A model generated the notes under the pieces. That model was not told the origin of the DNA and made no database searches. It saw only the letters and a list, made by a program, of their open reading frames with translations. Positions 2,338-9,398 of a stretch of 64,000 nucleotides of DNA are shown here, one piece after another. Position 1 is the first letter of the stretch. Each line of letters opens with the position of its first letter. The stretch is taken from assembly GCF_057098645.1 (NCBI RefSeq), contig NZ_CM169472.1, one strand, 5' to 3'. The position numbers were made by a program, and so were the translations under genes.

Positions 2338-2991
2338 TTATATCCCTTCTTCACTCTCTTTTTTCGCTTCTGCCTTCTCGATTTCACGATACCAGCGCGG
2401 ATGGTGTTTCTTCGCCCAGCGACGGCTCACCTTCCCTTCGATCATCCCTTTAATCGATCCTTTCACCCAGAATGCCATATACATATGGATCAGGATGGCG
2501 TGGATCAGGATGATACCCGCAGCCGCGTGGATCAGCAGGCTGTAGCGAACAACCTGCATCGGGAAGTACTGCGCAAAGTACGGACGCCAGATAATCACCC
2601 CGGTCACCAGCAGCACGAAAATCATGCTCATGATCGACCAGAACATCATCTTTTGCCCGGCGTTGTACTTACCGACATCCGCCACTTTATGCTCATTGCC
2701 TTTTAATACTTCGACAATGTTTAACAGCCACGGAATATCTTTCTTATCCGGGATGTTGTGATGCACAAAACGCACAAACATAAACATCAGTGCGACGAAA
2801 ATCGCAATGCCGAAGAATGGGTGCAAAATGCGTCCCATCTGCGGCGTACCGAAGGTTTGCGTCAGCCATTGCAGCGTCGGGAAGAAGAACGAAATCCCGG
2901 ACAGCGCCACCAGGAAGAAGCAAATCACCACGGTCCAGTGACAGGCGCGATCAATAAATTTGGTGCGCACAATCATTTTCGACTTACTCAT
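2338..2991 (-). CDS. fdnI: Formate dehydrogenase-N gamma (cytochrome b556) subunit
   Basis: 217-aa membrane protein from internal ATG (2991); overlaps fdnH stop; operon context. Confidence 0.9.
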
Positions 2992-3868
2992 GATGATCCT
3001 CCTCGTCATCGTCCACTTCCTTATTCGGGCCAATACCGATGTAGTGGAAAATCAACCCGGCAAAAGTGGCAATAAAGCCAGCCGCTGCCAGCGGTTTCAA
3101 CGCGCCTTTCCACAGGCTTACCGAGGTGTCGATCTTCGGATCTTTCGGCAGACTGTGATACAGCTCCGGCTGATCGGCGTGATGCAGCACGTACATAACG
3201 TGCGTACCACCGACCCCTTCCGGGTTGTAGACGCCAGCATGTTCGTAACCACGCGCTTTCAGTTTCGCCACGCGCTGTTCCGCCAGCTCCAGCATCTCCT
3301 TCTTGGTTCCGAAGTGGATAGCCCCGGTCGGACAGGTTTTCACACAAGCCGGTTCCTGGCCGACGCTGACGCGATCGACGCAGAGCGTGCATTTATATAC
3401 CCGGTTATCCTCTTTGTTGAGGCGCGGAATATTAAACGGACACCCGGCAATGCAGTAACCACAGCCGATGCAGTTTTCCGACTGGAAATCGACAATCCCG
3501 TTAGCGTACTGAATGATTGCACCGGCAGACGGGCACGCCTTCAGGCAGCCCGGATCTTCACAGTGCATACAGCCATCTTTACGGATCAGCCACTCCAGCT
3601 TGCCGTTCTGTTCGGTTTCGCTAAAGCGCATCACCGTCCAGGACTTGGCGCTCAGATCGGCGGGGTTATCGTAAACCCCGACGCAGTGCCCCACTTCATC
3701 ACGGATGTCGTTCCACTCCGAACACGCCACCTGACAGGCTTTACAGCCGATACAGGTGGAAACGTCGATAAGTTTTGCGACTTCTGCTTTGTAATCACGC
3801 ACCTGAGAAGGCGGCGTGATGGAGTTAGTTGCGGACCTTTTGATAATGTCCTGCGTTTCCATAGCCAT
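2984..3868 (-). CDS. fdnH: Formate dehydrogenase-N beta (4Fe-4S) subunit
   Basis: 294 aa, multiple CxxCxxCxxxCP ferredoxin motifs. Confidence 0.9.
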
Positions 3869-3880
3869 CTGTTCGCCCCC

Positions 3881-6800
3881 TTACGCCTTCTCGATGTTGA
3901 CTAAGAACGCTTTATATTCCGGCGTTTGCGAGTTTGCATCACCGACATTCGGCGTCAGAGTGTTAGCGATATAACCTTTACGCGCGACACCCTCAAAGCC
4001 CCAGTGGATTGGAATACCCACCGTTTCAACCTGCTGACCATTTACATTCAGCGGTTTCAGACGACGCGTTACCACAGCCACCGCGCGGATAAAGCCACGC
4101 TTGCTTGAGACAGTGACACGATCGCCATTATTAATGCCTTTCGCCGCCGCCAGCGTTTCGCTGATTTCCACAAACTGTTCCGGCTGAGCAATTGCGTTGA
4201 GCAATGCGTGCTTGGTCCAGGTGTGGAAGTGCTCGGTCAGACGATAGGTCGTACCCACATACGGGAACTGCTCTTTTTTACCCATCCGCAGTGCGTCTTG
4301 TTCATACAGACGAACAACCGGGTTAGACACCACGTTCGGATGCAGCGGGTTAGTGCCCAGTGGCGTTTCAATCGGCTCGTAGTGTTCCGGGAACGGACCT
4401 TCCGCCATTTTGTTGATGGCAAACAGGCGTCCCATCCCTTCCGGCTGCATGATAAACGGCCCGGTTGGCGTACCCGGTGCGGCATTGCCGAAGTCAGGAA
4501 TATCGTTACCCGTCCACTTGCTGCCGTTCCACTGGATCAGCATCCGTTTCGGATCCCACGGTTTACCGTTGATATCCGCCGAAGCACGGTTGTACAGCAC
4601 GCGACGGTTGAGCGGCCACGCCCAAGCCCATCCCAGCGTATTCCCCAGACCGGACGGGTCGGAGTTATCGAGGTTAGCCATCTGGTTGCCCTGCTCTGTC
4701 CAGCTACCGGTGTAGATCCAGCAAGAAGATGCGGTTGTACCGTCATCACGCAGATGCGCAAAGCTACTCAGCAACTGACCTTTCTTCGCAATCAGCACGC
4801 CATTAGCATCATAGAGATCTTCCAGCGCATAGCCGTTGTTCTCTTTAGCTACTTCGTCAGATTGCGGTTCGTGCGGCTGCTTGTAGTTCCAGCTCATCTT
4901 CATCAGCGGTTCTACGCCTTTACCACCTTCGGCCTGGTACAGCTCGCGCAGGTGATGGTAGATACCCGCCAGAATTTCACCGTCGTTACGCGCTTCGCCC
5001 GGCGCATCCTGACCTTTCCAGTGCCACTGCAGCCAGCGACCGGAGTTAGCAATAGAACCATCTTCTTCAGCAAAGCAGGTCGAAGGCAGACGGAATACTT
5101 CAGTCTGAATAGACGCCGGATCGACATCGTTCGACTCGCCGTGGTTCTGCCAGAAGGTTGAGGTTTCAGTCACCAGCGGATCGATAACCACCATGTACTT
5201 CAGCTTGCTCAGGCAGCTCACCACTTTGTTTTTGTCCGGGAAGGACGCAACCGGGTTAAAGCCCTGGCAGAAATAACCGGTGACTTTGCCTTCATCCATC
5301 ATGTTGAAATACTTGATGACGTCGTAGGTCTGGTCCCACTTCGGCAGCCAGTCATAGCCCCAGTTGTTCTCTTTCTGCGCGGCATCGCCATAGAAAGATT
5401 TCATCAGGCTAACGAAGAACTTCGGATAGTTGCTCCAGTAGTTCACCTGACCAGCCAGCGTCGCTTTCGGCGTGTTCGCTTCCAGATACGACTGCAAATC
5501 AACCTGTTTTTCTGACGGCAGCGTCAGATAACCTGGCAGGCTGGTAGAGAGCAGACCTAAGTCAGTCAGACCCTGAATGTTGGAGTGACCACGCAATGCA
5601 TTCACGCCGCCACCGGCCATACCCATGTTACCGAGCAGCAACTGGATCATCGCCATAATACGGATGTTCTGCGCACCCACGGTGTGCTGCGTCCAGCCCA
5701 GCGCGTACAGGAAGGTGGTTGTGCGATCCGGTGCGCTGGTGGAGGCCAGCACTTCACACACTTTCAGGAAGTCGGCTTTTGGCGTACCACAGATGTTTTC
5801 AACAACGTCCGGCGTGTAGCGGGAAACGTGCGCTTTCAGCAGGTTCCACACACAGCGCGGATGAGTCAGTGTTTCATCGCGTTTCGCATAGCCGTTTTCA
5901 TCGAACTGATAGTTCCAGGACGATTTATCGTATTGCCGTTTTTCAGCGTCGTAGCCGCTGAACAGACCGTCTTCGAAAGCAAAATCATCACGCACCAGCA
6001 GGCTGGCGTTGGTGTAATGCTTAACGTATTCGGCGTTGATTTTGTCGTTTTCGATCAGGTAGCGCAAAACGCCAGACAGGAACGTAATGTCCGTACCGGA
6101 ACGAATAGGTGCGTAAATATCCGCCACAGAAGCGGTACGCGTAAAACGGGGATCGACAACGATCAAGGTTGCATCGTTGTTGTTTTTCGCTTCCATCGCC
6201 CAGCGGAAACCGACGGGATGCGCTTCAGCAGCGTTACCGCCCATTACCATTACGACGTTAGCGTTTTTGATATCCACCCAGTGGTTGGTCATCGCACCGC
6301 GACCAAATGTTGGAGCAAGACTTGCTACCGTTGGTCCGTGTCAGACGCGCGCCTGGTTGTCTACCGCCAGCATCCCGAGGGAGCGGGCAAATTTCTGGGT
6401 CAGCATCCCGGTTTCGTTGCTGGCACCGGAAGCACACAGCATACCGGTAGAAAGCCAACGGTTTACCGTTACGCCCTGCTCGTTCTTTTCAATAAAGTTA
6501 GCGTCACGGTCAGCTTTCATCAGCTTCGCAATACGGGAGAATGCTTCTTCCCAGCTAATGCGCTGCCATTTGTCAGAACCTAGCGCACGATATTCCGGGT
6601 AGCGCAGACGGTTTTCGCTGTTGACGTAATCCAGCAAACCGGCCCCTTTCGGGCACAGCGCACCACGGCTTACCGGATGATCCGGGTCACCTTCAATGTG
6701 ATAAATCGCTTCTCTGGCGTTTTTCGCGCCATCACCCAGGCTATACATCAATAGCCCGCAACCTACGGAACAGTATGTGCAGGTGTTACGGATCTCTTTA

Positions 6801-6928
6801 GCGCGTAATAATTTGTAGTTTCGCGCCTGAGCCAGTGCTTGCTTCGGGGCAAAGCCCAATGCCGCTACTGTTGTTCCAGCCATACCGCCCGCGCAGATTT
6901 TAAAAAATTGTCTGCGACTGACGTCCAT
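3881..6928 (-). CDS. fdnG: Formate dehydrogenase-N alpha subunit, selenocysteine-containing (in-frame UGA at 6341-6343), Tat signal
   Basis: Two ORF-track pieces (6341-6928 and 3881-6292) in the same frame separated only by TGA; N-terminal SRRQFFK twin-arginine motif; total 1015 codons. Confidence 0.9.
6290..6343 (-). other. UGA-Sec codon plus downstream SECIS stem-loop in fdnG mRNA
   Basis: mRNA reads GUC UGA CAC GGA CCA ACG GUA GCA AGU CUU GCU CCA ACA UUU GGU CG, which can fold as a stem-loop immediately 3' of UGA. Confidence 0.7.
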
Positions 6929-7047
6929 TGCTTTCCTCTTTTTTCAGGGGTATTACTGCGCGAGGAAACTAACAGTAAAATTCTGAATCTTTTTGCGCGA
7001 AATCAAAAAGAACACGTGTTTGCCACAAAATAATCCGCCTGCGCAAA

Positions 7048-7061
7048 TTGACCTACCTCAA
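7048..7061. promoter_or_regulatory. FNR-like box TTGAC-N4-CTCAA in fdnG/yddG divergent control region
   Basis: Matches TTGAT-N4-ATCAA at 8 of 10 positions; fdnG is a known FNR/NarL target; exact promoter geometry not verified. Confidence 0.35.
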
Positions 7062-7159
7062 TAGCGGTAGAAAAACGCACCACTGCCTGACAGGCCAGTT
7101 AAAAAAATGCTATAAAATTCAGCTTAATTTTTAACGGCAAAAGAGACAAAACAGCGAGC

Positions 7160-8041
7160 ATGACACGACAAAAAGCAACGCTCATAGGGCTGATAGCGAT
7201 CATCCTGTGGAGCACGATGGTAGGATTGATTCGCGGTGTCAGTGAGGGGCTCGGCCCGGTCGGCGGCGCAGCTGCTATCTATTCATTAAGCGGGCTGCTG
7301 TTAATCTTCACGGTTGGATTTCCGCGTATTCGGCAAATCCCGAAAGGCTATTTGCTCGCCGGGAGTCTGTTATTCGTCAGCTATGAAATCTGTCTGGCGC
7401 TTTCCTTAGGGTATGCGGCGACCCGTCATCAGGCGATTGAAGTGGGTATGGTGAACTATCTATGGCCCAGCCTGACAATTCTCTTTGCCATTCTGTTTAA
7501 TGGTCAGAAAACCAACTGGTTGATTGTACCAGGATTATTATTAGCCCTCGTCGGCGTCTGCTGGGTGTTAGGCGGTGACAATGGGTTACATTATGATGAA
7601 ATCATCAATAATATCACCACCAGTCCATTGAGTTATTTCCTGGCGTTTATTGGTGCGTTTATCTGGGCCGCTTATTGCACAGTAACGAATAAATACGCCC
7701 GCGGATTTAACGGAATTACCGTTTTTGTCCTGCTAACGGGAGCAAGTCTGTGGGTTTACTATTTTCTCACGCCACAACCAGAAATGGTATTTAGCACGCC
7801 CGTCATAATTAAACTCATCTCTGCGGCATTTACCTTAGGATTTGCTTATGCTGCATGGAATGTCGGTATATTGCATGGCAACGTCACCATTATGGCGGTA
7901 GGTTCGTATTTTACGCCCGTACTTTCCTCAGCGCTTGCAGCCGTGCTGCTCAGCGCCCCACTGTCGTTCTCATTCTGGCAAGGCGCGCTAATGGTCTGCG
8001 GCGGTTCCCTGCTCTGCTGGCTGGCGACACGTCGTGGTTAA
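7160..8041 (+). CDS. yddG: DMT-family aromatic amino acid exporter
   Basis: 293-aa polytopic membrane protein; synteny. Confidence 0.9.
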   Translation: MTRQKATLIGLIAIILWSTMVGLIRGVSEGLGPVGGAAAIYSLSGLLLIFTVGFPRIRQIPKGYLLAGSLLFVSYEICLALSLGYAATRHQAIEVGMVNYLWPSLTILFAILFNGQKTNWLIVPGLLLALVGVCWVLGGDNGLHYDEIINNITTSPLSYFLAFIGAFIWAAYCTVTNKYARGFNGITVFVLLTGASLWVYYFLTPQPEMVFSTPVIIKLISAAFTLGFAYAAWNVGILHGNVTIMAVGSYFTPVLSSALAAVLLSAPLSFSFWQGALMVCGGSLLCWLATRRG

Positions 8042-8045
8042 AATA

Positions 8046-8070
8046 ACTGCCGGGTCTACGGCCCGGCAGT
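8046..8070 (+). terminator. Hairpin ACTGCCGGG-N7-CCCGGCAGT after yddG (no clear U-tract)
   Basis: 9-bp inverted repeat 5 bp after yddG stop. Confidence 0.35.
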
Positions 8071-8300
8071 TAATCAGATAAATTCCGACAATATTAAAAG
8101 AATAAATTTCAAATACCAGCAATTCACCTTATATCTCATTTCGACTTCGATCACATATCGATAAATAATATTATTTCATCTATTTTTCTCATTGTTTTTA
8201 ATCACCATTCTATTTTAAAAACAGCATGTCATTTATAAATGACGCCGTTTAAAATTCGTTTAGGAAATACGTTTAACGATAATTAAAAGGATTCTGTTAA

Positions 8301-9398
8301 ATGAAATTAAAAATAGCGGTGGTTGTAACTGGTTTGTTAGCTGCGAACGTAGCACACGCTGCCGAAGTCTATAACAAGGATGGTAATAAACTCGACCTTT
8401 ATGGCAAGGTTACCGCTCTACGTTATTTTACTGATGATAAGCGTGACGATGGTGATAAAACTTATGCCCGTCTCGGCTTTAAAGGAGAAACGCAAATCAA
8501 TGATCAAATGATTGGTTTTGGTCACTGGGAATATGATTTTAAAGGCTATAACGATGAAGCCAACGGCTCGCGCGGCAACAAGACCCGTCTGGCCTATGCT
8601 GGTTTAAAAATTAGTGAATTTGGCTCTCTGGACTATGGTCGTAACTACGGTGTCGGCTATGACATTGGTTCATGGACCGATATGTTGCCAGAATTTGGTG
8701 GCGATACCTGGAGTCAGAAAGATGTCTTCATGACATACCGTACCACCGGTGTAGCAACCTATCGCAACTACGATTTCTTTGGCTTAATTGAAGGGCTGAA
8801 CTTTGCCGCGCAATATCAAGGCAAAAATGAACGTACTGACAACAGTCATCTTTATGGTGCTGACTACACGCGTGCCAACGGTGACGGTTTCGGTATCTCC
8901 TCAACTTATGTTTATGATGGCTTTGGTATCGGTGCGGTATATACCAAATCCGATCGGACAAATGCGCAGGAAAGAGCCGCTGCTAATCCTCTCAATGCCT
9001 CCGGTAAGAATGCAGAACTGTGGGCCACAGGTATAAAGTATGATGCCAACAACATCTACTTTGCAGCTAATTACGCTGAAACATTAAACATGACCACCTA
9101 TGGGGATGGTTATATCTCGAACAAAGCACAAAGTTTTGAAGTGGTGGCGCAATATCAATTCGACTTCGGCTTGCGCCCATCACTCGCTTACCTGAAATCG
9201 AAAGGCAGAGATCTGGGCCGCTACGGCGACCAGGACATGATTGAGTATATCGACGTTGGTGCGACGTATTTCTTCAACCAAAATATGTCGACCTATGTTG
9301 ATTATAAAATCAACCTGATTGATGAAAGCGACTTTACCCGTGCCGTAGATATTCGCACCGATAACATCGTCGCAACGGGCATTACCTATCAGTTCTAA
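8301..9398 (+). CDS. yddL: General outer-membrane porin (OmpC/OmpF/PhoE family), intact 365 aa
   Basis: Signal peptide ending AHA|AEVY; beta-barrel porin sequence with C-terminal Phe; low-GC flanks; the K-12 ortholog is a pseudogene as far as I recall. Confidence 0.8.

Follow-up and report, generated by a model that had tools for sequence, protein, structure and literature searches.

The UGA codon that interrupts fdnG of E. coli in frame is, on the sequence analysed here, almost certainly a selenocysteine (Sec) recoding site, with a SECIS hairpin located just downstream. The sequence is a 64-kb stretch of DNA, referred to below as the window. The finding itself is not new. Both the UGA and the SECIS element of fdnG have been known since 1991, when Berg et al. 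reported this UGA as Sec (J Biol Chem 266:22380), as the citing passage of a review has it (PMC13188914). Support for the element comes from comparison of sequences, including a short helix that is paired in every sequence compared, and whose pairing is kept by compensatory changes at synonymous codon positions.

Reading frame and gene identity

The trinucleotide TCA at positions 6341-6343 of the plus strand corresponds to TGA on the minus strand. The list of open reading frames gives two minus-strand ORFs around it, one of 195 aa (6341..6928, stop included) and one of 803 aa (3881..6292). When positions 3881-6928 are translated in a single frame, the resulting 1016 codons contain an internal stop only at codon 196, besides the terminal stop. 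Thus, the two ORFs are one frame broken by a lone UGA, just as the first-pass annotation of this DNA had described them. That annotation gave no strand; it is the minus strand that carries both gene and signal.

The joined protein matches the NCBIfam equivalog TIGR01553 with 1610.7 bits (cut-off, 814.2) over profile positions 1-1009 of 1009, and it contains the Pfam domains Molybdop_Fe4S4, Molybdopterin, and Molydop_binding. Its N-terminal region includes SRRQFFK, which we take to be a twin-arginine (Tat) motif. Chain A of PDB 1kqf ("formate dehydrogenase, nitrate-inducible, major subunit") is matched over residues 1-1015 with ~99% identity, and the UGA codon falls on X, a non-standard residue, at position 196 of this chain. 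The differences from the 1kqf sequence are at the strain level only. Eight amino acid substitutions are visible in the alignment shown (e.g., P116L, N296D, and R753L), and none of them is in the peptide encoded by the SECIS element.

The surrounding region, window positions 3000-8200, has 99.9% identity to E. coli O145 genomes, and 5,425 of the 5,426 complete E. coli genomes contain a match to it. In the RefSeq annotation of the best-matching genome, fdnI, fdnH, and fdnG are accompanied by the divergent yddG upstream, and yddM, adhP, and maeA lie beyond. fdnG of strain K-12 is the same gene, with an identical codon number and with the fdnGHI operon likewise adjacent to yddG (Berg et al., 1991; PDB 1kqf). 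Since the product is ~99% identical to 1kqf_A against 76.7% amino acid identity to K-12 FdoG, and since the fdnGHI operon is located beside yddG, the gene is fdnG and not fdoG. Judged by its sequence, it is E. coli fdnG, which encodes the catalytic subunit of formate dehydrogenase-N (FDH-N), the nitrate-inducible enzyme that faces the periplasm. Between fdnG and yddG, the only candidates for an FNR box have two mismatches (6993-7006 and 7048-7061); as about 40 matches of this kind are expected by chance in the window, they carry no information. The coordinates of all features are collected in Table 1.

Table 1. Features of the fdnG region, in window coordinates.
Feature	Position	Strand	Basis
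fdnG CDS, alpha (catalytic) subunit of formate dehydrogenase-N, 1015 codons + stop, predicted Sec at codon 196	3881..6928	-	translation, RefSeq CDS, TIGR01553, Pfam, 1kqf_A
UGA codon 196, almost certainly recoded as selenocysteine	6341..6343	-	sole internal stop; aligned to X196 of 1kqf_A
Presumed Tat (twin-arginine) signal peptide region of FdnG, MDVSRRQFFK...ALA	6830..6928	-	translation
Full SECIS element, Rfam SECIS_3 (RF01989), model positions 1-59 of 59	6288..6346	-	covariance-model match, 59 nt
Apical SECIS hairpin, GG-U(bulge)-AGCAA / loop GUC / UUGCU-CC, 7 pairs; probable SelB-binding part	6312..6329	-	MFE + centroid structures
Lower SECIS helix enclosing the apical hairpin, starts 3 nt after UGA	6298..6338	-	predicted structure
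fdnH, iron-sulfur beta subunit, next in operon	2984..3868	-	294-aa ORF; RefSeq fdnH at corresponding position
fdnI, cytochrome b gamma subunit, last operon gene	2338..2991	-	ORF 2338..3033; RefSeq start = window 2991

The SECIS element downstream of the UGA

A search at the gathering threshold found a single SECIS match in the 64-kb window, to the Rfam family SECIS_3. Its score is 84.3 bits, for a gathering score of 63, with E = 2.5e-20 in the local search and 1.4e-18 when the entire window is searched. Part of this score is built in, because formate dehydrogenase (FDH) genes of E. coli and other enterobacteria are probably among the Rfam seed sequences. SECIS_2, the fdhF-type model, was also tried, and a score of 28.8 bits (gathering score, 70) excludes the element from that family. 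As the SECIS_3 score is partly by construction and partly due to coding conservation, independent evidence was sought.

The minus strand 3' of the UGA (6340 to 6298) is predicted to fold into a two-part stem-loop. Numbered from the U of UGA as position 1, the apical hairpin consists of G15 and G16, a bulged U17 (6327), A18-A22, a loop of G23, U24, and C25 (6321-6319), U26-U30, and C31 and C32. In the lower helix, positions 6-13 pair with 38-46 (window 6338-6331 with 6306-6298). The stem-loop anticipated by the first-pass annotation does form, with -12.7 kcal/mol for 46 nt and -14.6 kcal/mol for the 54 nt that it had delimited, but its stability does not go beyond chance. Compared with 200 shuffles, the z-scores are -0.63 for the 54 nt (50 of 200 shuffles fold at least as well) and -1.37 for the 46 nt (21 of 200), neither of which is significant, and stability is therefore left out of the evidence. 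The fdhF hairpin reaches a z-score of -1.33 in the same test.

A consensus model for bacterial SECIS (bSECIS) elements has been set out in a 2026 review (PMC13188914). It asks for an in-frame UGA with the element immediately downstream, which is the arrangement at codon 196. The apical loop, GUC, has 3 nt (3-9 nt in the model), and the upper stem has 7 bp, 5 + 2 with one bulged U between them (4-16 bp). According to the model, one of the first two loop nucleotides is a G, mostly with G or U after it, and the loop here begins with G23-U24 (6321 and 6320). The distance from the UGA to the loop is 19 nt, positions 4-22 (16-37 nt). The minimum free energy for the 46 nt lies below the ceiling of -7.5 kcal/mol and, as stated, is no better than that of shuffles.

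Related elements in fdoG and fdhF, and the Cys-containing paralogues

Alignment with the SECIS elements of fdoG and fdhF, the check that the first-pass annotation had put forward, speaks for the recoding signal. K-12 fdoG, which encodes the formate dehydrogenase-O paralogue, belongs to a different operon (fdoGHI-fdhE) at a different chromosomal location, and likewise has a UGA at codon 196. Around the site, 66 of 67 nt are identical to fdnG of the window and the predicted structure is the same, whereas elsewhere the two genes share 74.6% of nucleotides and the amino acid identity given above. The longest identical run between them in the 3-kb gene is 71 nt long (6346..6276; the runner-up is 36 nt), starts 3 nt before the UGA, and contains the SECIS element. 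Among the degenerate codons of the stretch 197-216, 19 of 19 are identical in fdnG and fdoG, against 57.4% gene-wide (p ~2.6e-5 under a simple independence model).

On the 3' side of the SECIS stem, the two genes stay identical for ~22 nt more, up to position 6276. This extra identity is most likely explained by amino acid constraint or by gene conversion between fdnG and fdoG. A nucleotide constraint beyond the hairpin, that is, an additional, undescribed enterobacterial determinant such as a spacer contacting the ribosome or SelB, or a pausing signal, seems improbable.

The gene fdhF, for the cytoplasmic formate dehydrogenase-H (715 aa, with Sec at codon 140), has an experimentally dissected, SECIS_2-like element. 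It shares with fdnG the start UGACACGG and the core UGACACGG...CGGU.GCA.GUCU, and the encoded peptides are alike (U-H-G-P-[TS]-V-A). The bulged U and the loop G-U-C are located at the same distance from the UGA in both genes, although the 3' half and the lower helix of the fdhF element are unlike those of fdnG. U17, G23, and U24 are reportedly the SelB contacts that were mapped in fdhF.

Two paralogues with Cys in place of Sec, L052 from Klebsiella sp. BIGb0407 and L084 from an Enterobacter MAG, provide a comparison for the model score. They have the same surrounding peptide, C-H-G-P-T-V-A-A-L-A-P-T-F-G-R-G, but TGT or TGC replaces TGA, the loop-encoding Ser is changed to Ala, and the G-U loop is lost. 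On SECIS_3, these two paralogues reach 41.8 and 48.6 bits and so fall short of the gathering score, while 84.3 bits are obtained for the Sec paralogues of the same genomes. About 42-49 bits are thus reached through coding conservation alone. As the Sec forms are ~36-42 bits above the Cys forms, ~40 bits of the SECIS_3 score are specific to the recoding signal.

Conservation and covariation among species

Homologous sites were scanned for in one genome per species, with a pattern of TGA, TGC, or TGT followed by codons for the peptide HGPTVA.LAPT with free third positions. Among the matches listed, there are 121 homologous loci from ~100 species of alpha-, beta-, gamma-, and deltaproteobacteria and Nitrospirae, and long open frames flank the sites on both sides. 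The recoded codon is TGA in 119 of these 121 loci, TGT in one, and TGC in one; the ratio of 119:2 is a biased estimate of Sec to Cys, because the pattern fixed the peptide and covers only the matches listed. The TGA-bearing sites among them, together with the window, form a set of 79 distinct sequences for the analysis of covariation.

All seven pairs of the apical helix are paired in 100% of cells across the 79 sequences, and compensatory double changes are found at two of them. Columns 24 and 36 of the alignment are G-C in 60 sequences, A-U in 16, and G-U in 3; columns 27 and 33 are A-U in 57, C-G in 17, and G-C in 5. The four covarying columns are synonymous third positions, all of them N in the scan pattern. 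In terms of codons, Val GUA/GUG varies together with Ala GCU/GCC, and Ala GCA/GCC/GCG with Leu CUU/CUG/CUC. Changes on both sides of a pair occur in 38 cells, compared with 7.9 ± 2.3 in shuffles, and none of 500 shuffles reaches this number. When the partner is slid by 1-3 columns as a control, pairing is 25-49%, against 93% in the unshifted register. The loop G-U (columns 29 and 30) is invariant in 80 sequences; both columns are N in the pattern, yet this invariance is uninformative alone, because the Ser (AGU) or Gly (GGU) codon fixes them.

The lower helix is paired in 86-88% of cells across species, and its register differs between an enterobacterial GGACC/GGUC form and a GGCCC/GGCC form. 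No compensatory double changes were found in it among the 79 sequences, only one-sided changes and the shift of register. Two registers were tried as universal ones and rejected. With that of Rfam, mismatches of the A12·G44 type remain in the enterobacterial form, with 24-38 unpaired cells at some pairs; that of ViennaRNA suits the window but breaks down in the GGCCC forms, where one pair has 60 unpaired cells. Since neither register is universal, the structural claim rests on the apical helix.

The first-pass annotation had read the site as the known Sec insertion signature of formate dehydrogenase-N, and had named two observations that would speak against this, namely Cys codons in the homologues and a lack of conserved SECIS structure. 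The reading is supported by TIGR01553, X196 of 1kqf_A, SECIS_3, and covariation. As for the two observations, the homologues among the matches listed carry TGA at nearly all sites, with the Cys forms below the SECIS_3 threshold, and the apical helix is conserved throughout.

Read-through by a standard tRNA, premature termination, and sequencing error

One alternative is that the UGA is read by a standard tRNA, a near-cognate tRNA for Trp or Cys, and not by SelB with Sec, so that the conserved nucleotides would reflect either the demands of the protein sequence or a gene conversion involving fdnG and fdoG. The 71-nt identity could in principle stem from such conversion, and the scores of the Cys paralogues indicate how far coding conservation alone can go. 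However, third-position covariation across distant phyla is explicable neither by conversion within a genome nor by amino acid constraint, and the distance in bits between Sec and Cys forms, as well as the placement of the bulged U and the loop G-U relative to the UGA as in fdhF, also argues against this alternative. The sel machinery is, in addition, core to the species: selA-selB is present in 5,425 and selC, for tRNA-Sec, in 5,424 of the 5,426 complete E. coli genomes. No tRNA genes were found in the window, and selA, selB, and selC lie outside it, so that their presence in the source genome is deduced from the species. Published 75Se and genetic evidence likewise favors Sec (Berg et al., 1991, as cited in PMC13188914). 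Taken together, decoding by a standard tRNA is very unlikely, and Sec insertion is the preferred reading.

The second alternative, that the TGA is a true premature stop, is extremely unlikely. It would make the locus either a pseudogene or a pair of separate 195- and 803-aa proteins, with the hairpin being incidental. Public gene calls that list the halves as separate proteins agree with it, and so does a hairpin stability no higher than in shuffled controls. Nevertheless, the TGA stands at the same place in the great majority of the loci listed and also in fdoG and fdhF, the region is found at a coverage of at least 80% in 5,407 E. coli genomes, and the crystal structure 1kqf is one 1015-residue chain that runs across both halves. 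Moreover, covariation at synonymous sites maintains the helix, which is unexpected for a decaying pseudogene. Finally, the chance that the TGA arose from faulty sequencing or assembly of the window is negligible, as thousands of independent complete genomes, as well as genomes of other genera, have the same sequence.

Proposed mechanism of decoding

The steps of bacterial Sec decoding have been summarised, and the three E. coli FDH elements are the best-characterised bacterial SECIS elements (PMC13188914). For the E. coli FDH elements, specific binding by SelB and SelB-dependent decoding of the UGA are known from published work (PMC13188914, PMC7590224), and the WH3/4 domains of SelB bind the fdhF SECIS (PMC7590224). 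For fdnG, the following course would be expected; with regard to SelB binding, competition with release factor 2 (RF2), and the role of Sec196 as a Mo ligand, it draws on established knowledge. The UGA at codon 196 (6343..6341, minus strand) would be decoded as Sec and not as a stop. The apical hairpin, with its bulged U at +17 and the loop G-U at +23/+24, would be bound by the C-terminal winged-helix domains of SelB carrying GTP and Sec-tRNA(Sec), the latter being presumably the selC product charged via SerRS, SelA, and SelD. An oncoming ribosome would melt the lower helix, with the UGA placed in the A site, and the tethered SelB would hand over Sec-tRNA(Sec) in competition with RF2. The hairpin may then refold for the following ribosome, while translation would proceed to the 1015-aa FdnG. 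In the finished enzyme, Sec196 would be the selenium ligand of Mo in the bis-MGD cofactor of FDH-N (1kqf). If selenium or SelB is lacking, translation would be expected to end at codon 196.

Annotation of the site and its meaning

The first-pass annotation had also remarked that automated annotation would miscall the gene as a pseudogene. This is not generally true, because the NCBI pipeline annotates the site correctly; in the best-matching genome, RefSeq gives one intact CDS of 3048 nt, which bears a protein accession and is not flagged as a pseudogene. What holds is that other public gene calls split the gene. The exact 195-aa N-terminal fragment appears as a stand-alone protein on 44 contigs, and in GenBank entries EFA4760822.1 and GCS04400.1 it is named "sulfate ABC transporter substrate-binding protein". 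C-terminal halves of 803 aa have been deposited under the name "formate dehydrogenase-N subunit alpha".

For biology, the site brings nothing new, as Sec196 of fdnG and its SECIS element were among the cases on which the concept of bacterial selenocysteine recoding was founded. In practice, it serves as a warning that fdnG is split by naive ORF calling. It also provides a clean positive control for scans: statistics of folding energy miss the signal, whereas covariance models and covariation at synonymous sites show it plainly.

Split entries of FdnG in public databases

The Sec codon of fdnG is not recognised in a number of public gene calls, and so the protein is deposited in pieces. The exact sequence of the N-terminal piece is found as a stand-alone protein entry on 44 contigs, and C-terminal halves of 803 aa are entered separately under the name FdnG. 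In two GenBank entries (EFA4760822.1 and GCS04400.1) the N-terminal piece is labelled "sulfate ABC transporter substrate-binding protein". These split or misnamed entries are an annotation error that follows from the missed Sec codon.

Coordinates of features in the window and at related loci (L003, E. coli fdhF; L052 and L053, Klebsiella sp. BIGb0407; L084, Enterobacter MAG)
Feature	Location	Strand	Remarks
N-terminal FdnG fragment	window 6344-6928	-	195 aa, stops at Sec UGA
fdnG SECIS, folded segment	window 6298-6343	-	
fdhF SECIS, folded segment	L003:6905-6950	-	
Identity beyond SECIS hairpin	window 6276-6297	-	part of 71-nt run, 6346..6276, vs K-12 fdoG
Cys FdnG-like paralogue, Klebsiella	L052:3789-3855	-	TGT or TGC in Sec place
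Cys FdnG-like paralogue, Enterobacter	L084:4244-4310	+	TGT or TGC in Sec place
tRNA-Sec gene, Klebsiella	L053:529-619	-	Rfam tRNA-Sec, 80 bits
FNR-box-like TTGCGCGAAATCAA	window 6993-7006	+	2 mismatches
FNR-box-like TTGACCTACCTCAA	window 7048-7061	+	2 mismatches
Porin gene adjoining yddG	window 8301-9398	+	"porin OmpC" in closest genome's annotation
sok antitoxin RNA	window 61880-62031	+	Rfam RF01794, 97.5 bits vs 59
RydC small RNA	window 62591-62654	+	Rfam RF00505, 89.3 bits vs 48

Neighbouring and other features

An anaerobic promoter is expected between fdnG and yddG. The two FNR-box-like sequences there make a weak case as candidate FNR sites, because chance alone would give about 40 such two-mismatch matches in the window. 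The porin gene encodes 365 aa in the window and 366 aa in strain RM9872, and therefore a small indel separates the two outside window 3000-8200. The sok match implies a putative hok/sok-type toxin-antitoxin locus. In Klebsiella sp. BIGb0407, the tRNA-Sec gene and the Sec codon of an FDH alpha gene are about 6.3 kb apart. In K-12, selC (3.84 Mb) and fdoG (4.08 Mb) are distant from each other.

Conservation and stability of the SECIS element

Two enterobacterial genomes among the matches listed carry, beside Sec forms, an extra FdnG-like paralogue with Cys at the Sec position. Both paralogues score below the SECIS_3 gathering score (41.8 bits in Klebsiella and 48.6 bits in Enterobacter). In the latter, the two sides of the apical helix can still pair but the G-U loop is gone, which may be a relic of Sec-to-Cys conversion.

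Between fdnG and K-12 fdoG, identical nucleotides continue for about 22 nt past the 3′ end of the hairpin. This could be due to amino-acid constraint on G-A-M-T-N-H-W, to gene conversion, or to an extended constraint.

The fdhF SECIS has been validated experimentally. Against dinucleotide shuffles, the z-scores of the folding energies, for the fdnG and the fdhF element alike, are only about -1.3 to -1.4. Screens by stability would overlook true bacterial SECIS elements.
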